Shown: in pieces, positions 10,560-63,373 of the stretch
Position numbering within the stretch: position 1 is the first letter of the stretch
Layout: each line of letters begins with the position of its first letter
NCBI GenBank assembly: GCA_039621445.1
Contig: CP154954.1
Coordinates: 49,765,847 to 49,829,846, forward strand
Reading direction: 5' to 3'
DNA from: Euglena gracilis
Taxonomy: Eukaryota
DNA: 64,000 bases
Translations under genes and position numbers: made by a program
The notes under the pieces: model-generated
Told to the model about the DNA's origin: nothing
Database searches by the model: none
Seen by the model: only the letters and a program-made list of their open reading frames with translations

Positions 10560-13500
10560 TCAGCAGGACACGAGGTCGAGGTCGTGGAAGATGTCGATGA
10601 GGACGCTGTCCAGTCCCAGCACCGACTGCAGGAAGTGCCGTGCCGCGGAGCACGGCGGCGCCCCCAGGCTTCCTTTTACCCGACCAAAGGGGGGTGGGGG
10701 AGGGGGGCCGGGTGCACTGTGGGGTGCCTGCCCATAGCAGGCAAACCCCCCTGGGGGGTGGGTCGGTTTGGGTCCCGGTGCCTGCTGACCCAGGCAATTT
10801 CCTGTTCTTGAAAATGGCCATTTTCGGATGTGCTACAGCCCTCACCCTCAAAACCCAACCCCCTGAAAATACCCCACCCCCCCTGCCTGCCCATAGCACC
10901 CATCCCCCGAGGTGGGGGGGAGGGGGGCGACCTTCCTTAAAAAGAAACCTGGGCACCTCGTCGGCCTCCGCCACGTCCTTCCAGGCCACCGCCTTGCCGG
11001 AGGGCTGGCCCCAGCGCTGCTCTCCCGCCAGCGGACTGGAAACAGCCACGTGGCTGAAGAGGGGAACGGTGGCTTGGTTTGAGGTGTGTTGGTGCAGTGA
11101 GGCGGCGCATGGATGGCGGCGGCACCACCACCACCACCAATGCCAACACAAAGAATACAAACAAGATGTCACTGGGGGGGGGGGGGGCTAGTGGGAACCC
11201 ACTTTTGGGGGGGTCAATTTTGGGCCCAAAAAGTTTTTAGGCGGTTCGCACCAAAATAGAAGAAAACGTCACATCTGGTGGGGTACCCACCCAGCCTGAC
11301 CCCCGGGCTCGGCTGGGACCCACCCACCCTACCGGGTCACGAAACTAAAAAAAATATCTGTCCATCCATCCATCCATTTATGAACAAAAAAAATGTGACC
11401 CAAAACCAAATCAGCCCCCATGGGGGTGCGCCTGCTGTCGGCAGGCACCCCATCCTGGCGGGGTAAAAATTGGCAAAAATGCAATGGAGGAAAATGGAAA
11501 AGAAATCCCGCCAAATATTTTTGGACTGTTTTGGCCGAGATTGCCTAATTTCCCGATGCTTTTTGGAAATATCCAAAACATTGCCCCCTGCCGTTCAAGC
11601 CCATTTCCCCTTGAAAATAGCATTTTTTTGGTTTATTGGTGTGCTGACCCCAGAGGGAGGATCAAATATTCCCAACCCCCCTGCCTGCCTGCACCCACGC
11701 CACAATGAATCAATGAAGCCCCCCTGCCAGGTTTTTACCGAGGGTTGTGCTCCTTCCTATCGCTTCCTGCGGTGCAGAGCTAACAGAGCCACGCTGTTCG
11801 CCAGCAGAGCTCTTCCTCTCCCTTCTCTTCCTCTGCCAACGTCTTCCGCATGCACTCCACAAAATTCTCAAATTCCGCTGTCAAATCCGGGGTGGCGGAA
11901 GCAGCGTCCACAAGGGAATCGGCGGTCGCTGGGGCCTCAACGGGCGGCTCAGGCAAGCACCTCCTTCCTCGGACCCACCCTGATTCCAATTGTCACAACC
12001 ATCTTAAAAAGCTGTCCATTTCTTCTGTCCATTTCCACACTTCAGAGCTTGCACAGAATCCACTACAACAGGTAGCATCCCTCAGAATTCCACATACAGG
12101 CAGGCAGGTGGTGGGTCGGACACAATGGAGGGGCACACCCTCACCAAAACAGATGTGCGACCAAAATGACTGATTTTTCAGCAGGTGCAAAGTTCTGGGC
12201 CGAAAAGCCCCCCCCCCCCATCGACCGAAAGCGTGACACCCTCCTTTTATGAAATCCTGATCCCCCTTCGAAACAGCAAAACTGTTGCAATTGAAAAAAA
12301 CCTTGCACACCTTTGGTGGTTTGGTGAAAAAATGCTGGGCCATAAATTTCAATGGCGGCCGCGGTACCTGCCTGGTTGTGGGGGTGTTTAGGAGAGCGAT
12401 GTTGTGTGCCGCTGGGGGGACGGCGATGGCCTGGCCTGCTGTCTGGGACACCACGATGGGGCCACAGCCGCCCAACGCGGTTCGCAGTTCGCTCCTAACA
12501 CACCCCGCCATGAGGAAATAGCTTGCATGGGAGTGATGACTGGCGCGGGTGTCAAGAATAGAATTTGCATTGCAGCTCTGGGCGGTCCTTAAGCAAGTCA
12601 AAAAAAAAAAAACCTCACCCATCCCAGCGCAGTCAAAATCCACAGGGAAAAAGCCCCCAAAAGGCCATCTTTTTGGCGAAAACGGGTCAACCACGGGGGG
12701 AACAGTGCTTTCTGGCTTGCATCTAGAGCGTGGCTCAAGGCAGTCTGTAAGTAGGAGTTCTTAACGGAGAAAGAAAATAAAATCCTGTCCTGTTGCACAG
12801 CCCTCTTGCACCGTCACACCAGCCCTGGGGGGAGAGCACAATAGAAAGCGCGGGCCCTGGTCGGGGTGCAGCTTGTTGCACTTGGCGCCGAACTTGCACT
12901 GGCCGGTCATGGCCCACACCTCGCAGATCTCCCGCCCGGCCTGCGCCTCCACCGCCTCCGACAGCTGCTGGTACGCCGTGAGGTCCGGGTGGACGAAGCG
13001 GCACTGGGAACACTGCGGCCGGCTGGAATTGATGTTATCCCCAGACCAAAAAGACAAGGCTTTATTTTTTAAGCCCCACCCAGCCCAGCCCGGAACCAAA
13101 CACCACTGGTCAGCCATGCTCTTGGGCCCAGCACTGCCCAGCATCGCCCAGCATCGCCTTTGAAGCCCTTGGGACTCTTCCTGTTCCTACACCCCCTGAA
13201 ACAAACCCTCCCCCAAATAATACCCCAGCCCTCAGGGTACGACTTCTGCGACCGGGTTAATACCCCCCCCCCGTTTCAGGCCAAAGGCCCGGATTTTAAC
13301 CTGAAAATGTTGGTAAAAATCACAATCTCTGACAACAAATTACGAAAAAAAATCATCTGACCTCCAAAAAATGGTAAACTTCATAAACACAAAAAATGAC
13401 CCAAAAGAGGGTCAAAAGGCGCTATTTTGGCTCCTACGGGACTCCGAAAAATTTGGGGTGTTATTCAGGCCGGGACTTCGGGCAAAAAAAATAACCCCGG

Positions 13501-18496: not shown

Positions 18497-21400
18497 TCAA
18501 CCAAGGTTCTTTGGGTTTTGAGGTGGACTTACAAGCCCATGAAGCCCAATCATCAAACATCCAAGAAACCCTGTGCTGGACAGAGTTGAGCGTCGGGGAT
18601 GACAGACCGGCTTGACAATCGAGTTAAATGCAGGTTGTTGTGGCGCGGCATTTTCAAACGAGGACAAAATTTCTTCCAAATAAAAGTCGGTGCACAAAAA
18701 GCTGCTTGTTTTGCCGACAGACAAGGCGTAGGCGGAAAGGTTAGAGAGATGGTGGGTTAGAGGCGAACAAACAAACAGGAAGGCATGCATTCTGCAGCCT
18801 GTTGCAGCACATCTTGGAACAATATATCAAATGAGTGGGAACAAATTTACATCAGCCTGGTAGAGTTGCTCGCAATGTGTTTGGCTCAATGGAACTGTGC
18901 ATGACCTAGATGGGAGAATATGAAAATGAATGCAAATGAAAATGAAAATGAAAACGGCCACTCCATCTAAACCTGATCACAACTTGGTGGCGCAATCCAG
19001 AATCGGGGCAAAATATCATTAAAAAAAAAACGCAGAGTTAGGATACCTTGGTTGTTTGCCACTCTTTTGCCTGCAGACGACTGGCCGCGAACTCCCAGGC
19101 ATGCTTTGACGCAGTCAGCAACCGTTTTGAACAATGTTGGGAGCACCCCCCCCCCCATTGTGCTTGAGTGGAAAAAGAAAATGTAGTGAGGATTGCTGCC
19201 CAGCGCTCGTAAATCGCCATTCCTCCAACAAGCAAAACACTCTGCGATTTTTGAGAAGGCTTTCTGCCTTTTATGCTGTTTCTTTGCGAACTGAAATCGG
19301 GTCAAAAACTCTTGAAATGATTTCAAATTGTTCAACCAAGCGTGCGCTACCCATCTTTTCCAAAACACATAACGGGTTTGTTGAACCTTCTTTGAATTTC
19401 AACAATCGGTTGGAAGAAGCCGGCGCTTACCCTTGATTAACGTGAAAGCCCAAATCTCGGGCGACCCTCTGCAGCGCAGCCCATCGCTTGGTGGACATGC
19501 TGAACAGCTGTGAAATTGACAACAAAAATCAGCACTAAATGGGCTGACTGCTGGGCTTTGAGAGAAGCGAATTCAAGCGCTTCGACAAAGATCGGACCGA
19601 GAGGGCCTCCGGATCAGTCTGATCCGCCTTGGGAACACAGGTCACGTCAAAATCAACATGTTGCGTTCTTTGGGAGGCACAATACCATTGTATTACATTG
19701 GGTGCTTCTTGGCGGATATCCTTGTGCAAAGAGGACAGGAGAACTGATGCACCATCGACATAGAGAGCTACTAAATTGGCATCAAGCCAAGCACTGACGT
19801 TGACCTTTTCGAAAGCGGTGGTGATGGCCGTTTTAATGGCATTTGCATCCCTTCCCTCACCAACCATTTTTTCCACTCCGATAAAGCTTTGGAGCAGGCT
19901 TTTGCCACTGAATTTCCGGGCTGTCACAGAGGCCCATTGACCGCCGGCCTCCTTCACCTCATCCACCATAATGGCGCGCGACGAGGCCAGCGCCCACAAT
20001 TTCCGCAAATGCTCCCTAGCTGCATCCGCAAAGAATTTTGAGACCACTGGAGTGTATCGGGAGGCGTACCGCAAAATCGTACTCCACCACCCCATTGCTC
20101 TTTTGCAGCTCCAACAGTGGTCGGAGTATTGTGTTGGCAAAACCGTTCTTGGCCATGAACAAAACAGTGCAGAACATCACCTTACCTTTCGGAATCAAAG
20201 AATTCGGCAATGCGATGATCGCCTGGGGCATGGGCGCATTTGATCGATTGGATAAACCTTGTGCAGCAATATGGTATGCTCCATTCTCGTGTGATTTGAC
20301 ATTTCAGAATGAATACACTTTCGTTGGGAGAGCCAAAACATTTTTCTTTTTGCCACTGCCACTCACCTTGGGGTGTTGTCGAAAAGCATGGCACGTAGCA
20401 CACCACATTCCAATCGCTGGGTCAAAACCACTTTCGATTCGATTTCCAACTGGACTGAAACCTCTTCTCCTTTTTCTCTCTTACGTCCAGGCAATTTGAT
20501 TTTCTTGTTCGGTGGGGGGTTCAAAGAACTGGATGAATCTCCAGGGAGCGACTGGGAGCAGGCACCTATGGTCACTTCCCATTTTGGTGCTCTGGTCGGC
20601 CCTGGTCGGCCCTGGTCGGCCCTGGTCGGCCCTGGTCGGCCCTGGTCGGCAAATAGTCGGCCATAGGTGGGGGTATCGTCACAGGAAAAAAGATTGTGAA
20701 AAATGACCCAAAATTACCAAAAGGGCGTAAAATGGCCAAAATGCCATAAAATATGCTCACATTGACCCAAATTAGCCCAATATTTGCCAAACCAGTGACA
20801 AATGGCCCCCAAGTGAGCAAAAACTGATCCGTAATGGCCAAAATGGGTGTAAAACTGGATATTTGTGGGGAAATTATCCAAAAATGGGTTGAGTTATTCA
20901 AAATATACAATATACTGGCACAAAATGCTCAAAAATGGTCAAATTGGACCAAAAAGAGACCAAAAAAATGGGCAAAATAACAAAAAAAGGTCGAAAATGG
21001 CTTTAAATGGTCAAAAATGGCCCCAGAGCAGGACAAAATGGCCCAAAATTACAAGAAGTGCGCAAAAAGTGGCAAAAAATGGTCAAAATAGGTCGAAATT
21101 GGTGAATTATGGTGACAAATGGGCCAAAAGGGGACAAAAGCGACCTAAAGTGGCCAAAAGCGGCCAAAAGTAGCCAAAAGTGACAACATGAGCCAGACGA
21201 GCCAGAAAAATCTCAAAATCTGGGATAAAATTCCTCATTCTCACTGAAAAAATGACATCAATCAGAAAAAAAGTTGCACAGTCGGCTGCGGTCGGCTGCG
21301 GTCGGCTGCGGTCGGCTGCGGTCGGCAACCCACCTATGACAGTCCTGAAACCCGCGGTAACCCGCGGTCGATGCTGCCGGGCCAGCATCGTCCTGCATCG

Positions 21401-21726
21401 CCCAGCACCGCCCAGCATCATCAAAGGAGCTTGGTTCAGAGGGAAAGCTGCCTAAGTCCTTCATCCATTCCCCTTCGGTCGGCCAATCACATGCAAGTCG
21501 GCCCTGGTCGGCCCTGGTCGGCCCTGGTCGGCCCTGGTCGGAACCCCCACCTACGGGGGTCCTGAAAATCATAGTCGGCCCTGGTCGGCCCTGGTCGGCC
21601 CTGGTCGGCCCTGGTCGGCCCTGGTCGGCCATAGGTGCCTGACTGGGAGCTGCCACTGCTAGAAGAGTCCTCCGTCTCCGCTCGCTCCCAAGAGGAAATG
21701 AAAGAAGACAAGCACATTTGCTTCAT
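18497..21726 (-). pseudogene. Decayed hAT-superfamily transposase (ZNF862-like), interrupted by a family-1 MITE
   Basis: Fragments read across stops and frameshifts: MKQMCLSSFISS...; a TTF-type zinc-finger remnant (RFQSSW...MWCATC...KSHENGAYH); and a DDE core with IMVDEV, LYVDGASV and WYCASQR (the CxxH position). GATACAC subterminal repeats occur at 17450-17595 and 21765-21870. A probable left terminus CAGACC lies at 17434; the other terminus was not found. The 3' boundary is approximate. Confidence 0.75.
20559..21641. mobile_element. hAT-like MITE family 1, second copy, inserted in the 5' part of a transposase ORF
   Basis: Same TIR CAGGCACCTATGG and similar internal sequence to 43435-44327. 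Perfect 8-bp TSD ACTGGGAG (20551-20558 and 21642-21649). Confidence 0.93.
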
Positions 21727-27691: not shown

Positions 27692-27977
27692 CAGGCTTCT
27701 TTTTAAGTCAGCAGAACCCCCCCCCCCGGGGGGAGGGGGGGTCGGTGGGGGGGTACGGGCCGGACCCCCCCGGGGGGGGTGGGGGTCCCGCGCCGGAGGC
27801 GCTGGGTATACCTTTTCGGCGCGAAGCGCCGAAAATTTTTGGAAATCGCCTTTAGCGGGCCCGATTTTGGGGGGGGTCCCGGCCCCCCCCCCCCAGGGGG
27901 GGGGGTCCCGCGCCACCCTGGGTGGGTGGGGGGGGACCCCCCCCCTCCCCCCCCCGGGGGTCTTAAAAAGAAGCCTG
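27692..27977. mobile_element. hAT-like MITE family 3, free copy
   Basis: Perfect TIR CAGGCTTCTTTTTAAG and perfect 8-bp TSD CTTCCGAC. Confidence 0.9.
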
Positions 27978-29017: not shown

Positions 29018-29510
29018 CAGGGCAGAACAGGAAGGCCTGGTGGGGGGGTTGACCCCCCACCTGGGAGGTGGGGGGGGTAGGTCGTCGACCCCCCCCACCC
29101 ACCACAGCATTTTCACAAATTTTGGGAAACGGGGATTTTGGCAGGGGAAATTTTTGATTTTTTTTTTGAAAAATGAACCCAAAATACATTCTTTAATTCT
29201 TTCGATGGACCACATTTTTTCACAAAAAAAATCTCAAAAAATTTCAGGTTTAAAAATTGGTAATTCGGAGGAGAGGGGTGAAAAAAAACGAAGGTCAAAA
29301 AACTGGACCAAATTTTGGCACAGTCAATTTTTACTGACATTTTTTCAAAGGCGCCAGGAAAATTTCTTGGGGTCCAAAAATTGGTGCTCCTGGAAATACG
29401 GGAAGAGGTGGTGTTGGAACCCCACCCCCCCCAACATGCAGGGGGTGGGGGGTGGTCGACCCCCCCCCTCCCACCAGCCTGGCTGTTCGGCGGATTCCCG
29501 TTCTGCCCTG
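29018..29510. mobile_element. hAT-like MITE family 2, free copy
   Basis: TIR CAGGGCAGAAC(A/G)GGAA and perfect 8-bp TSD GGGTTCCC. Internal sequence is similar to 39283-39844. A shorter relative lies at ~33858-33982. Confidence 0.88.
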
Positions 29511-37908: not shown

Positions 37909-40900
37909 TCAGCAGGCGACCAGGTTCAGGTCCCGGAAGATGTCGATCAGCGCGCTGTCCACCCCCAGCCCCAGGGAAGAACGGGAAGGCCTGGGGCAGG
38001 GGGGGGGGGAAATGCAACTTGGCCCTTCAAATTATGCAAGTCAAAAAAATGCAAAAAAATGCAAAAAAATGCAAAAAAAATGCAAAAAAATGCAACTTGC
38101 AAAGAAAACCCTGAGAAAACCCTGAGAAAAGGCTGGAATGTAACAGAGTTGCTGCCTATAATCCATAGGCATGTGACAATGCCGGTGTATACCTGTCAAT
38201 GATTCACAAAGAAGACCTCCTGGACATATATTGCAAAAACTGGCTCCTACACTAGACAAGTGTGGGGGGGTGTGGGGGGTGTGGGGGGGGTGTGGGGGGG
38301 TGTGGGGGGGTGTGGGGGGGGGGGGGGTGTGGGGTGAATGGGGGGGCGGGGGGGGGTGGGGGAGGGGGGGGGGGCGGGCGCAGCCCCCCCCCCCCCTCCC
38401 CCCCCCCGCCGCGGTGGCCGTAGGCCACCGGACCCCTCATCGGTGGCTGTGGGCCTGGATAATGTCTATCTGGGCTCCAATTTTTCACGGAAAAAAACAT
38501 ACATTTTGATGAAAAAAATTCCAAAATTCTCAGGTTTAAGTTGTTTTCAGGAGTGGTGATAAAACTGCAAAGTCAAAAAAACTGCCCCAAATTTTGGCAC
38601 ACTCAAATTTTATTGACATTTTTTCTCTTGGCAAATTTTTGGTATTTCAACCATTTTTTTGCTTCAAAAACCTCCGACATTCAAACCTTTGAGAAAATTG
38701 TGCAATTTGGACGGTGAGGAAAAAAATGTGGTCTTGGGCGGGTTTTGGAGGGACCTCCAATTTGCCAACATAGGTCCCAAAATGGGACCAAAATACACCC
38801 GGTGCCGAACCCACACGGGTCAAGTGTGGGGGGGGGGGGTTGTGGGGGTGTGTGTGGGTGTGGGGGGTGGGGGGTGTGGGTGTGGGTGTGGGGGGTGGGG
38901 GGGGGGGGGTGTGGGGGTAAATGTCTAGTGTAGGAGCCAGTTTTTGCAATACCTCCTCCTGGAAGACAACAGCAAGCACTGAGACCCCAAAAACCCCAGG
39001 CAACTGCAGAGGGACCAGAGACAAAACATGACATTGGCGACCAACTGCAAAAAAGTTTTCCAGGACAAAATATTTTATGCAAAAAATGCAAAAAAAATGC
39101 AAAAAATGCAAAGAAAATGCAAAAAAAATGCAAACATATGGCGACCAACTACAAAAAAATTTTCCGGGTCAAAATATTTTATGCAAAAAAATGCAAAAAA
39201 ATGCAAAAAAATGCAAATTTCGGAAAAACCCGATTATGCAAAAAAAATGCAAATTATGCAAGTTGCATTTTTTCCCCCCCTGCCTGGGGGGGGGGTCGAC
39301 CCCCCCACAGCATTTTTTTTTCCACCAATTTGGGAAAACGGGGATTTTGGCTGGGAATTTTTTTGAATTTTTTTGAAAATTGGACCCAAAATACATGATT
39401 TTTTTTGATGGAAAACCACACTTTGTTACAAAAAAATCTGAAAATTTTTAGGTTTAAAATTTGGTATTTTTTAGGAGGGGGGTGAAAAAAACGAAGGTCA
39501 AAAAATCGGACCAAAATTTGGCACAATCAAATTTTACTGACAGTTTTTCTCTTGGATTTTTTTTGGATTTTCAATGGCACTGTTCGCTTCAAAAACTCTC
39601 AAAATGAAAATTTTGAAAAACGTTGATATTTTGGAAGGTGTGGAAAAATGGGGTTCTTGGGGGTTTTGGGGGGACCTCCTTCACGGGTCCCAAAATGGGT
39701 CAAAAATGCACCCGGCACCAAATAAAAATCTTTTTTGATGTCCAAATTTTTGGTGCTCCTGGAAATACGGGAAGAGGTGTTGGGGGGGGGGTCGACCGCC
39801 CCACCCACCACCCTGGCTGTTTGGCTGATTCCCGTTCTGCCCTGCCCAGCACCGACTGCAGGAACCGCCGCGCCGCGGAGTACTGAGGCGCCGCCTCATC
39901 CTCCGCCAGCTCCTTCCCGGCCACCGCCTTGCCAGAGGGCTGGCCCCAGCGGAGCCCACCGACCTGACTCCAAACCCTGAAGCAAAACACCGTGGTGGGC
40001 TGTTACCTGTAAGAATCTAGGACCCTAACACATTTCTATCATGGGCGGTGCTGTGATCCTGACAAGTTGTTAGGCACATGAAGGAATGCAACTTGTTGGC
40101 GCCCGGGGGGAGGGGGTAGGTCAGCCACTGCCGGTAACCTGCAACAGTGTTTGGACATGACTGGCAAAACTGACAGGTTGGCCGGCAGTTCCCCAGAGGG
40201 GACCGCAGGAAAACATGGTTGCTAGCAGGCTTCGTTTGACTAACCCCGGCGGGGGGTGCCTTGAGCTGTGGGATTGTGCCCTGCCCATAGTACCCCCCCC
40301 CCCATGTCCAATGACCGGTAACCTCTGTCCTCTGACCGGGGGGGGGGGGGTGGTCGTTGGACATACGGTAATGACCAAAAAGGTGTCCTCTGACCGGGGG
40401 GGGTGGTCGTTGGACATGGGGTCAAAAGAAAGTTGGTGGGTACCCGGGTCCCTACCCACCCAAAAATGCCCAAATTTTCCCTTCCGGCGCTTTGCGCCGA
40501 AAATTTTGGGCAATTTTGACAAATTTTTGTCCAAAAAGTGTCAAAAATGGCATTTTGGCCAAATTTTTGGCCAATTTTTGGGCAAAATTTTTCGTCCCGG
40601 CGCTTCGTGCCGGGACGAAAAATTTGGTCAACCTCCGAAAAGGTGTCCTCTGACCGGGGGGGTGGTCATTGGACATAGGGGGGTCGTTGGACATAGGGGG
40701 GGGGGTAAGCACACTCCCCTGGGGCTGGGGGGTCGGTTTGGAACCCCGGTGCCTGCCGACCAAGCCAGTTTTCCCTTGAAAATGGGTGTTTTCCGCCCCC
40801 GGCCCCTTCGGTGCTGGGGTGTGTGCAGGAGCACTACCCACCTCAAAGCCGACCCCCCCCCCGGGGGCAGGGTTACGGTAGGAGGATGTTCCGTAGGAGA

Positions 40901-43900
40901 ATGCTCTAGAGCATCCTGTAGGGTCCGCTCGAGGTCGCTCGAGGATGCTCTAGAGCATCCTCGAGGTCGCTCGAGGATGCTCTAGAGCATCCTCGAGTGT
41001 CGCTCGAGGTCGCTCGAGGATGCTCGAAAACATCCTCGAGTGTCGCTCGAGGTCACTCGAGGATGCTCGAAAACATCCTCGAGTGTCGCTCGAGGTCGCT
41101 CGAGGATGCTCTAGAGCATCCTCCTGCGTACACACATGCACGTATAATGAGACTCAGAACAGATTTCGAACAGGGCACTTTGTTGGATTGGCATTGGCAG
41201 TGGGGGACCATGAATTGAGCAACCCTTGCAGGCACCACACAGCAGGCACCCCTCGAGCTGTAACTCAACTGTTCGAGGGCCCCAAAATAACAAAATCCCT
41301 TGTGTTTCCAAGTCGTTTCGGGGGCAAATCCCTTGTGTTTCCAAGTCGTTTCGGGGAGCAAATCCCTTCTGTTGCTCAACTGTTCGAGGGCCCCAAAATA
41401 ACAAAATCCCTTGTGTTTCCCAGTCGTTTCGGAGCAAATCCCTTCTGTTGCTCAACTGTTCGAGGGCCCCAAAATAACAAAATCCCTTGTGTTTTCAGTC
41501 GATTCGGGGTGCAAATCCCTTCTGTTGCTCAACTGTTCGAGGGCCCCAAAATAACAAAATCCCTTGTGTTTCCCAGTTGTTTCGGGGGGCAAATCCCTTG
41601 TGTTTCCAAGTCGTTTCGGGGAGCAAATCCCTTCTGTTGCTCAACTGTTCGAGGGCCCCAAAATAACAAAATCCCTTTGTGTTTCCCAGTCGTTTCGGGG
41701 GGCAAATCCCTTGTGTTTCCAAGTCGTTTCGGGGAGCAAATCACTTCTGTTGCTCAACTGTTCGAGGGCCCCAAAATAACAAAATCCCTTGTGTTTCCAG
41801 TCGATTCGGGGGGCAAATCCCTTCTGTTGCTCAACTGTTCGAGGGCCCCAAAATAACAAAATCCCTTGTGTTTCCCAGTCGTTTCGGGGGCAAATCCCTT
41901 GTGTTTCCAAGTCGTTTCGGGGAGCAAATCCCTTCTGTTGCTCAACTGTTCGAGGGCCACAAAATAACAAAATCCCTTGTGCTTCCAAGTTGTGTCGGGG
42001 GGCAAATCCCTTCTGTTGCTCAACTGTTCGAGGGCCCCAAAATAACAAATCCATCGTGTTTCCAAGTTGTTTTGGGGGACATACATGCATGCATATACGT
42101 AGGAGGATGCTCGAGATGTCGTTCGAGGTCGCTCGAGGTCGCTCGAGGATGCTCGAAAACATCCTCGAGCTCGCTCGAGGAGCTCTAGAGCATCCTCAAG
42201 TGTCGCTCGAGGTCGCTCGAGGATGCTCTAGAGCATCCTCGAGTGTCGCTCGAGGTCGCTCGAGGATGCTCTAGAGCATCCTCCAGCGACGCTCGAGGTC
42301 GTTCGAGGATGCTCGAAAACATCCTCGAGTGTCGCTCGAGGTCGCTCGAGGTCACTCGAGGATGCTTTTTAAGCCCCCCCCCTGGAGGGGGGGGCTTAAA
42401 AACGCTCGAGGATGCTCGAGATCGAGCGCTCGATCTCGAGCATCCTCCTACGGTAACCTCCCCCCCCCCCCGGGGTTGAAAATGCCTTCCCCCCCCCACA
42501 CACTCCTGGTTGATAGACCGGAGGGAAAATACTGCATCAATTTCTGCGCAATGAAATTGGAAAAGAAACACCATGACATCATTCGCTGTCACAGGGCGCC
42601 GCTGCCTGCCAGCAGAACTCTTCCTCATCCTTCTCCTCCTCCGCCAGCGTCTTGCGCATGCACTCCGCGAAGTTCTCAAACTCCGCCGTCAGGTCCGAGG
42701 GTCCAGCCACAGCCTCCGCAGGGGAGGCATCGGCCGCTGGGGTCTCGTCGCGCGCTGTGAGAGGCTGCACACAGGTGCCCACCAGGCAACAGTGGTCGTT
42801 CCAGTGCAGGACTGCAAACCAAACTTCCAAACAGGCTCCAAACGCATTTGACTCTGCGGCCCACCCTGCCCACCCTGCATACGCCATCGGAGAATCAGTC
42901 GCCCAGGATTGGCGCAAACGAGGAGATGCACTTCTCTCATCAAAACAGAAGCAACCATTTTGATGAGCAAATGCCGGGTGATCAAGCATAACCCATTGGA
43001 AATCCTGTGGAATCATGGTGGAAACACACAGGAAACAAGACAATCTCTGGGGGAGGACAGTTCCCCGGGGGGGATACACATCCATATAATTTAATGCTTC
43101 CATTCATCGAGCAGATTGAGCGCCCGCCTAGCCGCAGCAGTGTTGAGGAGGGCGACGTTGTGCGCCGCGGGGGGGATGGCGATGACCTGGCCCGCTGGGT
43201 GGGACACCACGATGGGGCCACGGCGGCCCTGGGGTCGCCTCCGACACATCATGACAATGGGAAATGGTATGCATGGGACTGATAACCGGACACAACAAGA
43301 AGAGGCATTTACATTGGAGCACCACCACCACAGCCATCACAGCCCAGGAAGCAAGAACAATGCAATGAGGGGTGGCCATGGGCGGGGTGCAGCTTGTTGC
43401 ACTTGGCGCCGAACTTGCATTGGCCGGTCATGGCCAGGCACCTATGGTCACTTCCCATTTTGGTGCTCTGGTCGGCCCTGGTCGGCCCTGGTCGGCCCTG
43501 GTCAGCCCTGGTCAGCCCTGGTCGGCCCTGGTCGGCAAATAGTCGGCCATAGGTGGGGGTATCCGTCACAGAAAAAAAGATTGTGAAAAATGACCCAAAA
43601 TTACCAAAATGGCAAATTTGCCAAATCAGTGACTGCGGTGGGCTGAAAATGGTTAAAAATGGCCAAAAGTGGGCAAAGGCCAAAGAAAAGCTGTTTTGGC
43701 CACTACTTTTGCAAATCCAGAAGTTGCACCTGGCGCAAAATGCTCAAAAATGGTCAAATTGGACCAAAAAGAGACCAAAAAAATGGGGAGAATAACAAAA
43801 AAAGGTCGAAAATGGCTTTAAATGGTCAAAAATGGCCCAAGAGCAGGACAAAATGGCCCAAAATTACAAGAAGTGCGCAAAAAATGGCCAAAAATGGTCA

Positions 43901-44813
43901 AAATAGGTCAAAATTGGTGAATTATGGTGACAAATGGGCCAAAAGGGGACAAAAGCGACCTAAAATGGCCAAAAGCGACCAAAAGCAGCCAAAAGTGACA
44001 GCCAGATGAGCCAGAAAAATCTCAAAATCTGGGATAAAAAATGAGCCTAATTCCTCATTCTCACTGAAAAATTGACATCAATTAGAAAAAAGTTGCGCGG
44101 TCGGCTGCGGTCGGCTGCGGTCAGCTGCGGTCGGCTGCGGTAACCCGCGGTCGATGCTGCCGGGCCAGCATCGCCCTGCATCGCCCAGCATCGCCCAGCA
44201 TCATCAGAGGTGCTTGGTCCAGAGGGAAAGCTGCTGAATTCCTTCATCCATTCCCCTTCCGTCGGCCAACCACATGCAAGTCGGCCCTGGTCGGCCCTGG
44301 TCGGCCCTGGTCGGCCATAGGTGCCTGGTCATGGCCCACACCTCGCAGATCTCCCGCCCGGCCTGCGCCTCCACCGCCTCCGACAGCTGTTGGTACGCTG
44401 TGAGGTCCGGGTGGACGAAGCGGCACTGGGAACACTGCGGCCGGCGTATCAAACGTTCCAGCCCTCCCCGCAAGAGGATGAAGCACCAATGTAATACCAA
44501 TACTCCAGGTCATTGCGTGCACACGCAGCACAGCAGGAACAGTGGCATTCAAATTCATTTCACATTTATGCCACAAGGCTTTAAGATCTGAATGGAGCAG
44601 AGGCACAAGGTATTTCTGAATGACCAGTTCTTCAGACTAATGCACTGCGGGAATTTCATACTTTGCCCACAACACCTCGCGGACGCCGGGCGCAGGGCGC
44701 TCCCTGGTGCACTTGCCCTTCAGGAAGTCGAGGCAGACACTGAGGCCGGCCTCTGCCTTGGGCTTGCGGCCCCTCCGGTGCACGGTGGTCGAGGCGTTGG
44801 TTGTGGGGGCCAT
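37909..44813 (-). CDS. Tandem CCCH zinc-finger protein, paralog C (214 aa, 7 exons, two transposon-derived introns)
   Basis: Exons 44699..44813, 44331..44427, 43384..43429, 43134..43213, 42608..42762, 39848..39941, 37909..37966 = 645 nt, open frame MAPTTNASTTVHRRGRK...LIDIFRDLNLVAC*. Exons 97+46 nt sum to the 143-nt exon 2 of the other paralogs. The acceptor at ~42762 is uncertain by a few nt. Confidence 0.82.
37997..39282. mobile_element. Nested CAG...CTG TIR element inside the family-2 MITE
   Basis: Ends CAGGGGGG..AAATGCAACTTG / CAAGTTGCATTT..CCCCCCCTG, flanked by CCTGGGG(G) repeats. ATGCAAAAAA subterminal repeats. Confidence 0.75.
38229..38951. mobile_element. Third-level nested inverted-repeat element
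   Basis: Perfect 30-bp inverted repeat TATTGCAAAAACTGGCTCCTACACTAGACA (38229-38258 / 38922-38951). A CCTCCTGGA 9-mer lies near both ends (38216-38224, 38955-38963). Confidence 0.65.
40293..40705. mobile_element. TA-flanked MITE (Tc1/mariner-pogo-like)
   Basis: TA|CCCCCCCCCCATGTCCAATGACC ... GGTCGTTGGACATAGGGGGGGGGG|TA. The same family occurs at 35715-36319 and at the window start (1-102). Confidence 0.75.
40868..42459. mobile_element. Foldback-like TIR element with CTCGAG/TCTAGA-rich arms
   Basis: Ends CAGGGTTACGGTAGGAGGATG / CATCCTCCTACGGTAACC. The arms (40900-41125, 42100-42445) are built of palindromic GCTCGAGGATGCTCTAGAGCATCCTCGAG units. A related end lies at 21900-22000. Confidence 0.65.
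41263..42075. repeat. Minisatellite, 9 units of ~76 or ~112 bp
   Basis: Nine occurrences of CAACTGTTCGAGGGCC, each followed by one or two copies of an AAATCCCTTGTGTTTCCAAGTCGTTTCGGGG subunit. Confidence 0.9.
43435..44327. mobile_element. hAT-like MITE family 1 inserted in exon 2 of paralog C (forms predicted intron 43430-44330)
   Basis: Perfect 13-bp TIR CAGGCACCTATGG...CCATAGGTGCCTG, perfect 8-bp TSD GTCATGGC (43427-43434 and 44328-44335), and (GGTCGGCCCT)n subterminal repeats. The site is empty in paralogs A, B and D. Confidence 0.93.
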
Positions 44814-47800
44814 TGGATTGCGGTGAAAGGCTGGGGAAAGAAGACTGTGCGGCACAAGGGGAGGGGCAAAAGAGCGACAACGTGCGTTGGGCGGCACTAG
44901 GGCCAAACTTGAAATGGGGGACAAATATCGAGCAGCGCTGATATTCTCAGCAAACAGAAGAAAAGACAGAAAAAATCAGCAGGTGGAAAGGATTGTGTGG
45001 ATATCATCCTTCAGTGATTGTGTGTGTGCCATGCGTGCGTTTCCTTTCAATCTTCGATTATTGAACAATTTCAAAGCCGATGGGAAAAATATAATCCCAT
45101 GCCAACTTCACCTCCCAATCCACCATGTTTGGCACTTTCATTCAAAATACCTGCTCTTGTCAATTGTCAAAATGGGTGGGGGAAGGTGGGTGGCAAATTG
45201 GCTGGAAATAGGACAGATTGCCGAGCGGGGGCTTGATAAACACACACAATCCGACTCTAATGTGGGGACTTAGCAAGCAAGCACTGCTGCAAAAAAAAAG
45301 CGTTTGCAGCGCGACAACACTGGAAGGCAATTCATTGGGGGAGTGGATGGATGGCTCAAGGAGCCCAGGGGCGTCTTGGCAACGCAGGCGGCCGCCTGGG
45401 GCCGCGGCACTGGACGTTGGAGGAGGGATGGGAGGGCCTGGGGTGGACTGCCATGCGGCTGCCCCATCCGGAGAGTTCACGCCATCGGTTCGGGAATTGA
45501 GGGTATCAATGGATGACGTGGAAAGACCAATTCGACGCTTTTTCTGCAAAAGCACTGTGATAAGAATTCGGAAGAAATGGGGGGACTCTGCTGTGACAAG
45601 TGGCAGCGGCTGTCAAAGTGCCGGGGCAGGAATATATACCTGGAATTGGGTTTGGACCCGTAACACCATACCTCCCCCCCCCAAGCCCAATGAACACTAA
45701 GGTGACAATCTAGATGGTCCGAACGGGGGGTGTTCATTGGGCATGGGGGGGGGGGGAGGTACCATTGTTTATCACCCCCAGGGATGATCACTTTCCACTT
45801 TCAAAAAACCAGTGTCAGTCACCTTTGGGGTCGGTCACTCTCACTCAGTTAGGGTGGCAATAGACAGAATTGCTTGCCAAAGTGTAAAGAAAAATGCGCA
45901 CGTTGAAACGACATGGGATGGGCCAGGACAGACAGGGATCCTTCAGGCTGCTCTGGCGTCTAAGGTGCAGAATGGAGCACCCTGGCGACGTTCCGGGACG
46001 GTTTTTGATGGCCAAAGGTCACCAGCAGTTCCTGCGTGCAACTGCTCCTACCTCGCATGATCACACCCTGCAGAGGGGTTTCGTGCGCACACATGTGTAG
46101 GTGTGCGCCATGGGTTGCATGTTCCACGCTGCATGTGTATGTGTTGACGTTGGTCCGTTTCCAGTGTTCTATTGTTGCAGAAGAAATTATAATCTTCGGA
46201 GTGTCTGCCTGATTTTGACCTTGGATGTTTGGATAATTTTATTTTTTTCTTACAAAAAGGGTGTACGCACACACACGCACACGGACATATGCAAGCATGT
46301 GCATCACAAACATATACACCTACCCTTTGTTTGGTTAGAGATGGGTTTGGTTGAAAAAAAAATCGGACCTTTCCTCTATTGCCTTAGAAAGAGCATGGAA
46401 AACAAGATTAAGCAGTCAAATCAGTCAATCTACCTCTAAAATGTGGCGGAAACCACATCAAGCAACTGCATGACAGAGCTTGGTCAAAGCGACCGAGGGG
46501 GGCTTTGAGGATATTGGGGGTAGGAGGCTTCAAGCAGGGTGGCCCATCCTTCCTTTGCCTCTCCGTGACCGCTCGACAGCTGGATGGAGGAGGGGAGGGA
46601 AGCCCCCCACACCAGTTTAATATTTGGACATCTGACGCTCCATCAGGCGGACTCCCAACCCATGGCAATGTTCAGGGATGTTCACGCAGCGCGTGCGAAC
46701 ACCTCACTCTGTCAATGGCATGGGATGACAAACGGACGGCAATGACGAATCAACTCCTTTTGTTCAGGACCAGGCCATTGCTGAAGGACCCCGGGGGGTC
46801 TAATGGAAAAAATGGACTGGTTAGACCACACCCTCCCCCCCACGGTGGGGTCGGGGGTTCCCCCAACTGGAAAGAAATTATTCCTCAAGCACTGCGCGCC
46901 GAGGTGGAAATGAGGTTTTTAATGCATTTTTGGCTGATTTACTCAAAAAAAATCCAAAGCTGGCCGAAAATGGGCATTTTTTTGGCCAGTTTTGGCGGTC
47001 CAAAAAAAATTCGGTGCTTCGCACTGGTCACTGGAAAAAAATTACAGGGGGTCTGCTAGGATTTCCGCTGGCCAAATTTGGACTAGCGGCAGTCCAGCCC
47101 CCTCACCCCCCCCCCCCCGGGTGCTGCGAACCCTTATGCAAAGGACTGTTCAGGATCTTTTTGATTTTGGGGTGACATTGGCCAAAGACAACGGGGGATT
47201 CCGAAAAAAAAAACATAGCACTCACTCCCCTGGGGGGTCAGACACCACTCAAGCAAAATTGAAAAGATCAAATAACCCTCCTACAAAAAATATCAGGGGT
47301 TGAAAATATGTTGGAATATCCAAAGAAAATTAAACTATTCCAGAAATATGCTGTGGACAAAGGAGTGAGTGTCAATGACATGAGTTGCAAAATTTGGCAA
47401 AACACGCAGTTTTTTTTTGCCAGAATATAGCAAAAAAACACACCCCCATTTGAGGAATGAAACCCTCCATTGTACATTTATGTGGACTGAAGGAGAAAAA
47501 GCATTGCAGAAAATCCGCAGAAATTTGCAGAAAACTATGATACGAACTCACCCCGTTTGCATAATTGTGGTCACGAGACCAAACAATCGCCATTTTATCC
47601 CAACATTGGAACATGAGCCGAAAAAATAAATAAAAAAGCCTGTAAAAAATCTTCATTGGACAGGTGAGCAAAAACAAGGGTATGAGACAGGTCCCTATGG
47701 GACATGTTAGCAGTTTCAGAGGGCAGAGAAGACAAATTCCCGTAGGGGGGTATGCCGGTTCCATTTCATTAATAAATGCAAATGGGGCGACCATGACAAG

Positions 47801-51300: not shown

Positions 51301-52753
51301 AAGGTGGTGTTAAATTTTTCGCAACCTGCAACCTGTGACCGGGGGGTGGTCATAAATGAGGTGTGGTCATACGACTAGGGGGGGGTACCCTGCTAGCAGA
51401 CCCCCCTGGGGGGTCTGCTAGAAATCCCAGTAGCCAAATTTGGATTAGCTGCAGTCCAGCCCCCCCCCCCGGGGGGGGGTTCAGCAAATGCCTGAGGCAG
51501 AAGTTCATTTAACACTTGTCGACCACACCTCCCCGGGGCAGTGGGTGAGCTGGGGCCGCCGGACGTCCCCCCCACCCCCGCGGGTGCGCCATTGGCACGA
51601 AAGTTTCCTTTTTTCAAGGATTTCGGCCGTGGTGGTACCCCTAGGGGGGGGGGGTTTGGTTGGGAGGGTTTTCGAGAAAAAAAATTGGTCGGTGGGTTTA
51701 GGCCACGGAGGACAGTACCCACCTCCCAGGGGTCACTGCCCCCCTATGTCCAAACAACCCCCAGGTCAGAGGACAGATTGTTGAAGACATGGGGGGTAAA
51801 GGATCTATGGCTGGTAAATATTCAGCAATGACAAGAACGGAGGGGCGGCCCTGGGCGGGGTGCAGCTTGTTGCACTTGGCGCCGAACTTGCACTGGCCGG
51901 TCATGGCCCACACCTCGCAGATCTCCCGCCCGGCCTGCGCCTCCACCGCCTCCGACAGCTGCTGGTACGCCGTGAGGTCCGGGTGGACAAAGCGGCACTG
52001 GGACCACTGCGGCCGGCGTATCACACATTCTAGTTTGTGAAGAATGAAATGCAATGACTTGGCTGCAACTACTGACAAAATACACAGCCGCATCAAATCC
52101 CAAAAAAAATTCCTCAGACTGAATACCGGAAAAATGAAACAAAAAACAAAGAACAACACAAGAAAACAGAAAAATCTCTGCATCATAGCCACGCAGAATT
52201 ACCTGTGGACGAATCTGCAAGCGCTCACATAAATGAATCAATGTGCAGTGCAAATGAAACCAGCAACTGATTGGGTTACAGTATCCAAGAGCACACCAAG
52301 TTTCTTGGTGTACTTGAATATCTGGCACCTTGGATCCTGACAGTTTCCTAGGGTGGTTTACAAGGAAAAGAATTACTATTGGTTGTTTGTCTTCAATAAC
52401 GACTAACCTGTCGCATCCTGGCTGGATTTGACAAACCCCAGGGAGGGAGTGGCCTCTCGGAGTGCCCTAGAGTGCCTGGGCAGGCAAGCCCCCCCGGGGG
52501 GGGGGGGTTGGTGAATGCCTGGGAGGGTGGGGATTATTACCAATGATTGCTACTGATACCGATGCATTCAGGCCACACACACGACCCCGTTCCCAGGAAC
52601 AGTGTCACCCGGCACCCGAAACGTCAGGCCGAGCTCAGGCTGCTCCCGCGTGCACTTCCCCTTCAGGTAGTCGAGGCACACGCCGTGCCCGGCCTCCACC
52701 TTGGCCTTGCGGCCCCTCCGCACCGCTGTCGAGGCGTGGGCTGTGGGCGCCAT
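48328..52753 (-). CDS. Tandem CCCH zinc-finger protein, paralog B (near-identical to A; apparent frameshift in last exon)
   Basis: Exons 52642..52753, 51857..51999, 50497..50773, 48328..48484. The first three have the same lengths as in A (112/143/277 nt) and the same junction motifs. The last exon has 5 extra nt in the GAG run at 48433-48446, which shifts the frame (stop at 48345) unless this is a sequencing error. Confidence 0.8.
48552..49670. mobile_element. 8-bp-TSD element with nested insert in intron 3 of paralog B (absent from A)
   Basis: Ends CAGGCTGTTTT...AAAATGCCGCCTG. TSD GTCTCTAC / GTCCCCAC. A carries a single GTCTCTAC at ~60023-60030. Confidence 0.7.
48613..49155. repeat. Near-perfect tandem duplication of a ~268-bp unit
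   Basis: GGGGAATTGATATCGGAGGCCTTCGG...GGTAAACT occurs twice head-to-tail and contains AATTGCGGAAA repeats. Confidence 0.85.
50858..51494. mobile_element. 8-bp-TSD MITE in intron 2 of paralog B (absent from A)
   Basis: TIR CAGGCATTTGCT...AGCAAATGCCTG and perfect TSD AGGCAGAA. The empty site in A is near 61679. Relatives occur near 17068, 46771 and 58249. Confidence 0.88.
51177..51385. mobile_element. TA-flanked MITE nested in 50858-51494
   Basis: TIR C(n)TAGTCGTATGAC with TA on both sides. Internal GCAACCTGTGACCGGGGGG repeats. Confidence 0.75.
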
Positions 52754-59810: not shown

Positions 59811-62800
59811 TCAGCAGCCGACGAGGTTCAGGTCGCGGATGATGTCCAGCAGCGCGCTGTCGACGCCGAGCACCGACTGCAGGAACCGCCGCGCCGCGGA
59901 GTACTGAGGCACTGCCTCCTCCTCCGCCAACTCCTTCCCGGCCAGCGCCTTGCCGGAGGGCTGCTGCCAGCGCGGCCCTGCACTGTACGCCCACGGCCAA
60001 ATAGGTGGAAGGAGTGGGCGGGGTCTCTACAGGAGCTGAAAGAAAACCCCAGCGATTCAGCAAGGTCACAAGCATTTTTGGATGGGCGCAGCCAACCAAG
60101 AAGTGAAATTTTTCTTTTAAAGACCACAAATAATGACACCTCTCCATGGTGGACGGCGTTCGGTAGCAGCCAGCTGCGGCGCAAACCAACCAATGAAAAA
60201 AAATGACAAAAATTGATGAGGTTTTTTTACAAGCATGAGGTAAGGGTTGATATTCTAATTCAAACAGTTGACCAGTTTACCCAAAAGCCACCCAACATTA
60301 CCGTTGCTCCAACCACACTAATTTCGGTAACTTCTATGGTTGGGACCATGGTAGGCTGCGGCCAACCTCAGTGTCCAATCTACAAGCAAAGGAAAAATTC
60401 GGCTTCATGGTTCGCAGTGGGAGCCAGCCGTGGCCGGCCGCAATTCCAACCAACATGAATGAATGCTTGCAGTGGGCATTTCTCACCACCTATGATGCAA
60501 TCTTCCGGGCTGTTTAAGCCATCTTACCCCCCCCCCCCGGGCAATTGCCACGTGACAAATTGGGCAGCATGGAGGGGGTGACAATTTCCCGTGGGGTGAC
60601 AATTTGGTCGGCACAGAGGGGGGGTGACAATTGCCCGGGGGCGTCAATTGCCCACCCACATAGGCCACATTTAAACCAAATGACCAAGAACACCATCTGA
60701 AACAAAAGTGAACACAGGAAAAATGCAGCTATGGTCATGATATTGTGCAGCGTTTGGTATGTGAAAGTTCTTTGCACGTTGTAGCGAAATAGAAGATTAA
60801 TCGAGTCATGTCAGCAAAAAGAAAATTCACAGTGCAATACTGCAAACAGGGGGTGACAAATTGGGCAGCACGGAAGGGGGTGACAATTTCCCGGGGTGAC
60901 AAATTGGCCGGCACAGCCAGGGGTGACAATTGCCCGGGGGTGTCAATTGCCCGGGGGCGTCAATTGCCCGGGGGGGCGCGGGTAAATCACTTTTGGTAAC
61001 CATGTGGGTTGTTTTGGCCTCTGCCACCCTTCATAACAATCGGAAAAAATGCGCTGGTTGGCTGGATGACCTTGGATGGTGGGTCAACCATTTCAGCCAC
61101 CTTTGAAAGTGACCACGCGACATTTTTAAAGAACTCGTCTGGATTTTCCAGCAACTCAGAAATCAGCAAATCACCTGCCTGAAAGAGGAGGCACAAATAC
61201 CCAAAAAAACTAAAAAGATGACTCTGGACGGATTTAGCAATTTGACACCGGGGATTTTGTCAGGAAATCCCCTCCCCAATACACAGATGGGGGGGGGGGC
61301 AAGTTCGCCAAGGGTAGCGCTGAACGCCAATGGTAGTCCTCCTCCTCTTCCTCCGCCGGTGCCGACTTGTTCCGCATGCACTCCGCGAACCTCTCCAACC
61401 CCGCCGTCACGTCCGGAGCCTTGGGACCAACGGCCGCCGCGGCGCCGGGGTTGCCGCTGGGGGACTCCCCCCGGCCGGCCTCAGCCACCGCGGGGGCCAC
61501 GACGTGCTGCACGGACCGCACGGCCGGGGTTGGCACGGGGGCCGGGGCGAGGCCTGGGGCGGAGATGGCGACGGCCTGCCGCGTCGGGCTGGCCACCACG
61601 ATGGGGCCAGGGGTCCTACCGCCTCGGTGGCGAGGGGAGCCCAACCCGGTCGGCCATGAGGGTCGGAGGCGGTCGGGGAGGGAGAGATTCATTTAACACT
61701 TGTCGACCCCCCCCCCGGGGCAGTGGATGGGTGGGCTGGGGCCGCTGGACGCCCCCCCCCCCACCCCCCCGCCGGGGGTCGGGTGCGCCATGGATCAGCC
61801 TTTGGCCCGAAAGTTTCCTTTTTTAAGGATTTCGGCCGTGGTGGTGCCCCTGAGGGGGGGGGGGTTGTGGTTGGGAGGGTTTTCGAAAAAAAAAAATTGG
61901 TCAGTGGGTTTGGGCCACGGAGGACAGTGTCCACCCTCCAGGGGTCACTGCCCCCCTATATCCAAGGGGGGGAGGTAGGTGGATATATGGCTGCGGGTTC
62001 TGGTGAACATTCAGCAATGACAGGACCGGAGGGGTGGCCCTGGTCGGGGTGCAGCTTGTTGCACTTGGCGCCGAACTTGCACTGGCCGGTCATGGCCCAC
62101 ACCTCGCAGATCTCCCGCCCGGCCTGCGCCTCCACCGCCTCCGACAGCTGCTGGTACGCTGTGAGGTCCGGGTGGACGAAGCGGCACTGGGACCTCTGCG
62201 GCCGGCATATCACACATTCTAGTTTAACTCTGTGAAGAATGAAATGTGATGACTGCCGCATCAAATTCCAAAAAAAATCTTCAATAAAAAGTCTTCAATT
62301 ACCGACTAAACCCGCCCCCCCCCCTAATAGAAGTGCAGGGCTGCCACAAGCGCAGGGTCAAAATAAAAGCGCACCCCCCGCCGTCGAAGGCGGCGGTCCA
62401 CTACAAGTGAACACCCCATTTCGATGGAATTCTTAAAGGAAATCAACCGGGCAGGAAGGGTCCAAATAGAAGCGCATCCCCGGCTGCCAGCAATCCGCTA
62501 TGAGCGCACCCGCGCTTCTATTAGGGGGGGGTTAATCTGTCGGTCAAAATCCATCGATCCTGGCTCAATTTGACCAATCCCAGGAGGGAGGGGGGTCTCA
62601 GCACCCAAGAGTGCCTGAGCAAGCAACCCCCCCCCCGGAGGGGGGGCGGTGAATGCCTGGGAGTGGAGGGGGTGGTACCAATGATTGCTACTGATAACAA
62701 TATGTTCAGACCACACACACGACCCCGTTCCCAGGAAAAGTGTCACCCGGCAGTCCGTCATCGGAAACGTCACGCCGAGCTCAGGCCGCTCCCGCGTGCA

Positions 62801-63088: not shown

Positions 63089-63373
63089 CAGGCTTCTTTT
63101 TAAGACCCCCGGGGGGGGGGGGAGGGGGGGTCCCCCCCACCCACCCAGGGTGGCGCGGGCCACCGCCGGGGGGGGGGGGTCTGGGGACCACCCCAACATC
63201 GGGCCCGTTAAAGGCAATTTTCAAAAAATTTCGGCGCTTCGCGCCGAAAAGGTATACCCAGCGCCTCCGGCGCGGGACCCCCCCCCCCCCCCGGGGGGGG
63301 GGGGACCGGCCCCCACCCCCCCACCCACCCCCCCCGGGGGGGGGGGGGGTCAGGTGACTTAAAAAGAAGCCTG
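63089..63373. mobile_element. hAT-like MITE family 3, free copy (inverted relative to 27692-27977)
   Basis: Perfect TIR CAGGCTTCTTTTTAAG and perfect 8-bp TSD ACACCCAT. Confidence 0.9.

Follow-up and report, generated by a model that had tools for sequence, protein, structure and literature searches.

An exonic transposon insertion in Euglena gracilis that probably behaves like an introner read by the nonconventional splicing code

Introduction

How the nonconventional introns of euglenids come into being has been an open question since their first description. It is raised anew by one locus of Euglena gracilis, where a repeated element with intact transposon ends interrupts a conserved zinc-finger exon. 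The stretch analysed, hereafter the window, comprises 64,000 nt of contig CP154954.1 (assembly GCA_039621445.1, positions 49,765,847 to 49,829,846 of the forward strand), with about 50% G+C and without long open reading frames (ORFs). It contains a tandem family of CCCH zinc-finger genes, here called paralogs A, C, D, and E, and the element in question splits the second CCCH finger of paralog C, a minus-strand gene. Is this insertion removed from the message, and by which set of rules?

A source resembling MITEs (miniature transposable elements with inverted repeats) was proposed by Milanowski et al. in 2014, when, as they noted, no euglenid transposable elements had been identified (PMC3935182). 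A 2024 review describes terminal inverted repeats (TIRs) and repeats like target-site duplications (TSDs), and words the origin as "likely from MITE elements" (PMC11282704), while papers of 2025 call the origin of these introns unclear or plausible (PMC12501133, PMC12621601).

At this locus, we give a probability of roughly 80% to the reading that a transposon inserted into C and that this very copy is spliced out exactly by the nonconventional route. The locus behaves like an introner, read by the euglenid nonconventional code instead of by GT-AG rules.

Structure of the element

The element and its second copy in the window are described by the following features.

43435..44327, no strand: non-autonomous TIR transposon of family 1, 893 bp (TIR match, TSD, repeat analysis)
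43435..43447, plus strand: left TIR, CAGGCACCTATGG (exact match)
44315..44327, minus strand: right TIR, reverse complement of the left one at 13/13 bases
43427..43434, no strand: left 8-bp TSD copy, GTCATGGC, 8/8
44328..44335, no strand: right 8-bp TSD copy, GTCATGGC, 8/8
20559..21641, no strand: second family-1 copy, 1083 bp, with TSD ACTGGGAG (20551-20558 and 21642-21649)

A sequence-only reading of this DNA had recognized an 893-bp element with perfect 13-bp TIRs and an 8/8 TSD, and these particulars are borne out; the span 43427-44335 counts both TSD copies. Exact sites of CAGGCACCTATGG number four in the window, at 43435-43447 (plus), 44315-44327 (minus), 20559-20571 (plus), and 21629-21641 (minus), and with up to two mismatches there are nine matches against a chance expectation of 1.71. 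As read, the direct repeat at the element is 10 bp long, GGTCATGGCC, because the terminal C/G of the TIR chances to extend the 8-bp TSD. The parse into a 13-bp TIR and an 8-bp TSD is preferred since all eight such elements in the window fit an 8-bp TSD and CAGG termini. The rejected parse, a 10-bp TSD with a 12-bp TIR, works only if each of the two family-1 TSDs starts with G and ends with C, and 8 bp suits the six elements of the other families.

The second copy had been called closely related and differently duplicated. It is indeed related and carries a TSD of its own, ACTGGGAG, but "closely" overstates an identity of 89.9% (783 matches in 871 ungapped columns, besides 234 columns with gaps). 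Its rebuilt empty site is crossed by open frames on both strands, so that it may lie in an exon or outside one. Several copies with different TSDs at unrelated sites, combined with empty sites, mark class II transposons with TIRs, and both are found here in the two family-1 copies and in the uninterrupted exons of A, D, and E.

Almost the entire element at 43435-44327 consists of arrays with a 10-bp period, built from five different units. This period equals one turn of the DNA helix, and the arrays may serve a transposase as subterminal binding sites or may be structural in nature. Summed DNA-contig depth over the element is 1e5-8e5, against 28-69 on its flanks, a value that is not a copy number.

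Host exon and empty sites

The interrupted exon of C and its uninterrupted counterparts are as follows.

44331..44427, minus strand: upstream exon piece of C, 97 nt, covering the last part of zinc finger 1 and the first part of zinc finger 2 (RNA joints, open frame)
43384..43429, minus strand: downstream exon piece of C, 46 nt, rest of zinc finger 2 (RNA joints, open frame)
12853..13023, minus strand: same exon of paralog A without the element, an empty site (Pfam zf-CCCH, E = 7.7e-9)
51847..52017, minus strand: empty site in paralog D (exon comparison, Pfam zf-CCCH)
62036..62206, minus strand: empty site in paralog E (exon comparison, Pfam zf-CCCH)

The zinc-finger exon translates into a C-x8-C-x5-C-x3-H finger (Pfam zf-CCCH, E about 1e-8), and the insertion point in C lies between the first and second cysteine of finger 2. 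When the element and one TSD copy are subtracted, C is colinear with A, D, and E, with no indel. Exon pieces of 97 and 46 nt that differ from A only synonymously had been predicted; RNA joints now fix their outer ends, and C and A differ at three sites in this exon, all of them synonymous. Among the window paralogs, two letters are unique to C, a plus-strand T at 43420 and a T at 44390.

Across the four paralogs, the zinc-finger exon and the last ~28 nt of the preceding intron share 96-98% identity, and neighbouring exons 75-80%. This uniformity suggests, from sequence comparison, either gene conversion or unusually strong constraint on a single exon.

Removal from the message

Raw RNA-seq reads from two studies, the cDNA (complementary DNA) run X21 and the stranded, size-fractionated RNA run X24, were placed on 42400-45100 at 98% likeness or more, as were two sets of DNA contigs, X1 and X14. 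The feature that emerges is the following.

43430..44330, minus strand: nonconventional intron, 901 nt, made up of the element plus 3 nt from the TSD copy upstream and 5 nt from the one downstream (RNA joint and code fit)

The RNA joint runs from 43425 to 44327, skips exactly 901 nt (the element plus 8), and can slide by 10 letters. It is carried by 275 X21 reads with 148 start places and by 46 X24 reads with 30 start places. The same joint with a short overhang appears as reads that end at 43435 and continue from 44337 (48 in X21, seven in X24). The sole other RNA joint across the element, seen in three reads, has nine extra letters; it is present in the DNA contigs too and therefore comes from a different paralog. 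Among the RNA joints of both runs on 42400-45100, no cryptic GT-AG joint lies inside the element. Mean X21 depth, computed from the depth table, is about 2.2 over the element body and 84-200 on C-type exons. X24 places the transcript on the minus strand. In the spliced message, the frame is open from the first ATG through both CCCH fingers, whereas the unspliced frame meets a stop about 47 codons into the element.

The sequence-only reading had named two outcomes that would count against it, namely the lack of a spliced C transcript and a junction at a cryptic GT-AG pair within the element. The joint was found and the cryptic site was not. The removal that it had predicted, with one cut between T and GACCAGG and the other between CCTGGCCAT and G, agrees with the 901-nt joint and with the sole cut, out of 11, that fits the code described below.

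In X24, the element body (43492-44310) is covered by reads that lie almost exclusively on the sense strand of the host gene, at roughly one quarter of exon depth, compared with 1-2% in X21. They could derive from a stable excised intron or from other copies of the family. Nonconventional introns are described as being excised as full-length circular RNA (PMC11282704); the joints of the RNA runs, obtained in an analysis not designed to detect back-joints, include none of that kind.

Fit to the nonconventional-intron code

From knock-ins in E. gracilis, Nomura et al. (2025) defined the signature 5'-N3-CDG ... CH'G-N5-6, followed by R, a purine, at the start of the downstream exon (PMC12501133). 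Synthetic cassettes that follow this signature were spliced out of a foreign exon, and pairing beside CAG and CTG was needed for splicing (PMC12501133). The 10-nt repeat at our locus allows 11 equivalent cuts, none of which has GT/GC-AG (or AT-AC) ends. All three parts of the code are present at one of the 11, the intron 43430-44330, which begins with GAC and CAG and ends with CTG and GCCAT before a G. The intron's CAG and CTG are supplied by the three terminal bases of each TIR, and its stem is the 13/13 TIR; a ViennaRNA fold, made without a shuffle control, pairs the intron ends. The locus shows five features of euglenid nonconventional introns, namely ends other than GT-AG, N3-CDG, CH'G-N5-6 before R, paired ends, and exact removal from the mRNA, the last assigned to this locus by the C-specific letter and not by phasing.

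The spacers have a simple arithmetic. The 3-nt spacer is the last three bases of the 8-bp TSD and the 5-nt spacer its first five, and 3 + 5 = 8. Because the spacers are halves of one TSD copy, exactly the element and one such copy are removed, and the sequence that preceded the insertion is restored.

These relationships can be assembled into a probable mechanism. A non-autonomous DNA transposon of the cut-and-paste kind, from a highly repeated family, would have inserted into the zinc finger 2 exon of C and duplicated 8 bp. Since the element ends in CAG...CTG and its 13-bp TIRs could pair in RNA, the new locus would thereby bear all signals of the code, that is, the 3-nt spacer and CAG, the stem, CTG and the 5-nt spacer, and the purine of the downstream exon. 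The nonconventional splicing machinery, which presumably does the cutting, would then excise 901 nt (43430-44330), made up of the element with a single copy of the TSD, so that the original frame is regained. Directly observed are the insertion, the empty sites of the paralogs, the 901-nt RNA joint, the near absence of element RNA from the cDNA run, and the match to the code; that the joined reads arise here, that insertion and not loss separates the paralogs, and that the nonconventional machinery does the cutting are likely readings of these data.

Locus assignment and alternative explanations

Since nothing interrupts this exon in the messages of A, D, and E, their reads mimic spliced ones when placed on C. 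Two further features of C serve to separate the sources.

43214..43383, minus strand: downstream intron of C, 170 nt, no GT-AG, in the same position as in D and E (145 X21 reads, nine X24 reads)
43134..43213, minus strand: following exon of C, 80 nt and 75-78% like its counterparts in A, D, and E (RNA joints, paralog comparison)

At 43420, the C-specific T is carried by 204 of 391 X21 reads and the paralog letter by 187; in X24, the corresponding numbers are 14 and 47 of 61. The exon at 43134-43213, being only 75-78% like its counterparts, marks C-type transcripts, and 145 X21 reads join 43384 to it. Another 192 X21 reads run off at 43384/43383 (166 + 26), a number that matches the 187 reads with the paralog letter, and the chief consensus of these run-offs (166 reads) agrees letter for letter with the end of the D and E exon that comes next. 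X21 therefore divides into about 190 paralog-type and about 200 C-type reads. As at least 323 of the 391 X21 reads at 43420 are joined, at least 136 reads with the C letter must cross the joint. An X1 DNA contig with the joined form has the paralog letter at 43420 and a depth of 596, compared with 28-69 on single-copy flanks, a ratio consistent with some ten or more empty paralogs genome-wide. The spliced reads thus probably originate at this very locus.

Several points weigh against this assignment. The C letters and the joint were counted separately, not phased on single reads. The joint also occurs in the X1 DNA contigs just described, though with the paralog letter, and no X1 or X14 contig covers the C letter at 43420 in either filled or empty form, gaps that in themselves prove nothing. 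Some X21 reads depart from the window letter at 42705 (58 of 75), 44709 (97 of 278), or 44356 (69 of 355) and have no other differences; hence C has a near-identical counterpart, whether copy or allele and at least one in number, that is also expressed. Such a counterpart, if empty, could supply C-type joined reads. Furthermore, the RNA runs match the DNA by species label only, so that another strain is possible.

These points feed the alternative that survives best, in which the insertion is real and this copy of C goes unspliced, either as a disrupted allele or pseudogene or with its transcripts degraded, the C-type joined reads coming from an uninterrupted near-identical allele or recent duplicate elsewhere. 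We consider this unlikely. Expressed copies at least 98% like C do exist, as the variants at 42705, 42696, 44709, and 44356 attest, and the window letter at 42705 is the minority one (17 of 75 X21 reads). A young insertion could still be heterozygous, and the DNA contigs are silent on whether an empty C-type site exists. However, retention of the element by a haplotype with 17 of 75 (~23%) of a C-type depth of ~140 predicts a depth of ~30 over the element, not the ~2.2 seen in X21. The locus, moreover, has every part of the code that sufficed for splicing from a foreign exon in the experiments described in PMC12501133, and no empty C-type site was found in the window or in the DNA contigs examined.

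Exact splicing of an insertion in C must also be weighed against the reverse polarity, in which an ancestral intron was precisely lost from A, D, E, and the other copies, for example by cDNA recombination or gene conversion. Outside this exon C is the most divergent of the four paralogs (75-80% identity), a single loss in the ancestor of A, D, and E is equally parsimonious on copy number alone, and the 96-98% uniformity of the exon hints at gene conversion. Set against this, the TSD (8/8) and TIRs (13/13) are undecayed, whereas the other two exon-splitting insertions of the window have worn to 7/8 and 6/8; and the joined form, at about ten times the single-copy flank depth in DNA contigs, indicates that most copies are empty. 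Loss is thus highly improbable, insertion being the likelier cause of the paralog difference, and even under loss the intron would have begun as a transposon insertion. The least probable alternative, a repeat copy misplaced into the exon during assembly, draws on the highly repeated nature of the family and on an exon-to-element junction that has no independent support in the DNA contigs, but a misjoin would not yield a perfect 8-bp exon duplication exactly at the outer ends of both TIRs, a geometry identical at all eight elements of the window.

Other elements of the window

A strict scan of the window for perfect 12-bp inverted pairs headed by CAG yielded seven pairs, five of them with a perfect 8-bp TSD. 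In 50 first-order shuffles, with ~40 pairs each, none had one. A control with reversed sequence is uninformative, because reversal keeps the TIR and TSD geometry; shuffles and off-register comparison are the valid controls. A relaxed scan (CAG-headed TIRs of at least 12/14, spacing 60-4000 bp) gave 31 pairs. In eight of them an 8-bp TSD lay in register with 6/8 or more matching bases, and in six it was perfect; the off-register control gave 0/31. The eight elements belong to four families, all ending in CAGG...CCTG. Five perfect 12-bp inverted pairs without CAG that have 8-bp flanking repeats were set aside as G/C runs or palindromic low-complexity sequence.

Exons of the gene family are split by three of the eight elements, the one at 43435-44327 and two others.

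37972..39844, no strand: older C-specific insertion, 1873 bp, family 4, TIR 13/14 (15/16 by eye), TSD 7/8
10665..10951, no strand: older A-specific insertion, 287 bp, family-2-like, TIR 12/14, TSD 6/8

The first, with TIR CAGGG[A/C]AGAACGGG and TSD CCCAGCCC / CCCAGCAC, splits a C exon whose counterparts in A (10585-10650), D (48350-48420), and E (59833-59903) are unbroken. The second splits an A exon that C (39865-39920) and D (48405-48460) keep in one piece, and by its sequence it appears to be an earlier gain of such an intron. By eye, all three exon-splitting elements follow the spacer-and-purine rule in gene orientation, the older two being predicted introns on sequence grounds. The graded decay of the TSDs (8/8, 7/8, 6/8) marks the element at 43435-44327 as the youngest of the three and argues for gain over loss. 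The earlier description of it as the youngest intron gain therefore stands among the exon-splitting insertions, while other elements of the window have equally perfect ends.

Within an intron of paralog D, a 637-bp element at 50858-51494 (TIR CAGGCATTTGCT, TSD AGGCAGAA, 8/8) has its empty site in paralog E near 61685; on sequence grounds, this transposon enlarges an existing intron and creates none. Copies of a third family, 285-286 bp long with a 16-bp perfect TIR, CAGGCTTCTTTTTAAG, and different perfect 8-bp TSDs, occur at 27692-27977 and 63089-63373. A 493-bp relative of the 1873-bp element, with a perfect 8-bp TSD, lies at 29018-29510.

Further gene structure of paralog C

The rest of the gene within the range covered by reads is as follows.

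44699..44844, minus strand: first exon of C, with the first ATG at 44813-44811 (RNA read ends)
44428..44698, minus strand: upstream intron of C, 271 nt, no GT-AG (175 X21 reads, 19 X24 reads)
42763..43133, minus strand: further intron of C, 371 nt, no GT-AG (102 X21 reads, nine X24 reads)

RNA reads on 42400-45100 define four introns of C, none of which has GT-AG at any compatible cut. In its first intron, a rarer joint, at 44429-44710, skips 280 nt and not 271 (18 X21 reads, four X24 reads), and may reflect alternative nonconventional splicing or reads of an unseen paralog. The intron at 43214-43383 reads CAT...GTG in C, where its D and E counterparts have CAG...CTG, so that both sides have changed and the G-C pair has become U.G. 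This lies outside the published CDG/CH'G wording, yet the intron is spliced in 145 X21 reads.

At the 5' end of C, an AG acceptor at 44846-44845 is preceded by a pyrimidine-rich run, and a loose read end at 44845 (46 X21 reads) has a short T-rich leader-like extension. This extension resembles, and may represent, the 3' end of the euglenid spliced leader. Together with the introns that lack GT-AG, it suggests that the window is nuclear DNA of a Euglena-like organism. Rfam, searched over 42400-45100, returned three weak matches to microRNA and long noncoding RNA models, far below gathering scores and outside the element.

Transposon class

The element has the hallmarks of a non-autonomous class II transposon, namely TIRs, a fixed 8-bp TSD (in 8/8 elements), and no transposase of its own. 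Among 91 ORFs of at least 150 amino acids in the window, Pfam found no transposase domain, the sole match being zf-CCCH in paralog D. Three ORFs of at least 130 amino acids overlap the element ends, and the one long enough to be scanned (at least 150) has no Pfam match. With 893-1083 bp, the family-1 copies are at or above the usual size limit of MITEs. Two metagenome scans with 21-nt stretches of the element ends gave 0 matches each and thus yielded no further copies. A leaf-litter metatranscriptome (X20) shared only a small part of the sequence words, which carries no information on habitat.

The 8-bp TSD and short TIRs resemble those of two superfamilies, hAT and Merlin. Elements of hAT type make an 8-bp TSD and depend on a hAT transposase, and their ends commonly begin with CAG. 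The window elements show an 8-bp TSD and CAGG termini in 8/8 cases, and match the hAT terminal and target consensus only partly by eye. Merlin families with 8-bp TSDs have been reported in E. gracilis, and Merlin is described as combining a DDE_Tnp_IS1595 transposase with an 8-9-bp TSD and with TIRs that have 5'-GG-3' at their ends (PMC8101967). In contrast, the window elements end in CAGG, with CA outermost and GG at positions 3-4, and so depart from the 5'-GG-3' terminus as that source words it.

Comparison with known systems

The closest likeness is to the euglenid nonconventional introns themselves, which lack GT-AG, have CAG at +4 to +6 and CTG at -8 to -6, and pair at their ends (PMC12501133, PMC3935182, PMC4770533). 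They further share with the present intron a pyrimidine followed by a purine at both junctions, sliding direct repeats, and exact removal from the mRNA. What sets this locus apart is a recognizable repeated transposon family with intact TIRs and TSD and with empty sites in paralogs. A second likeness is to a strain-specific gain, the new intron 4 of gapC in E. agilis ACOI 323 (Milanowski et al. 2016), which has eight-nucleotide direct repeats, a length equal to that of the 8-bp TSD (PMC4770533). Its authors read these repeats as the outcome of double-strand-break repair, and they identified neither a repeated family nor a TIR element at the site (PMC4770533).

The introners of Micromonas and Aureococcus (Huff et al. 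2016, cited in PMC11170887) and of dinoflagellates (PMC11282704) offer a mechanistic parallel, since transposon ends and the TSD provide their splice signals and an exonic insertion is at once an intron, as it appears to be here. Those introners use GT/GC-AG-type or other spliceosomal sites, and their TSD is 3-5 nt in Amoebophrya, as described in the same sources. The present element differs in placing CAG and CTG within its TIRs at fixed 3-nt and 5-nt spacers, in following the nonconventional code, and in its 8-bp TSD; GT/GC-AG removal, the mark of a spliceosomal introner, fits 0 of its 11 cuts. In a literature search that took in few subscription journals and no supplements, no publication turned up in which a repeated element family is given as the source or the 3 + 5 spacers are tied to a duplication of 8 bp.

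Implications for the origin of nonconventional introns

Nonconventional introns make up 71.8% of all introns of E. agilis, and junction repeats are found in 84% of introns (PMC12501133). Tentatively, and with a confidence that falls somewhat short of even odds, we suggest that the nonconventional splicing code is an RNA image of transposons with CAGG...CCTG ends and an 8-bp TSD, and that most such introns are decayed insertions. If so, the 3-nt and 5-nt spacers would be the halves of one TSD copy, and an exonic insertion in either orientation would be born as an exactly removed intron, its sole need being a purine at TSD position 6. By the same reasoning, the junction repeats reported in 84% of introns would be worn TSDs.

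This locus unites a repeated family whose ends are intact, a conserved zinc-finger exon split by one of its members, sister genes in which the site is empty, and exact removal from RNA. It also offers an arithmetic reason for the experimentally defined spacers of 3 and 5 nt, whose sum is one 8-bp TSD copy. The transposon origin of nonconventional introns is itself a prior hypothesis, proposed with a MITE-like source in 2014 and now some 12 years old. On the reading favoured here, the locus would supply a direct example of a Euglena-type intron arising from a transposon, and the hypothesis becomes testable both genome-wide and at the bench.

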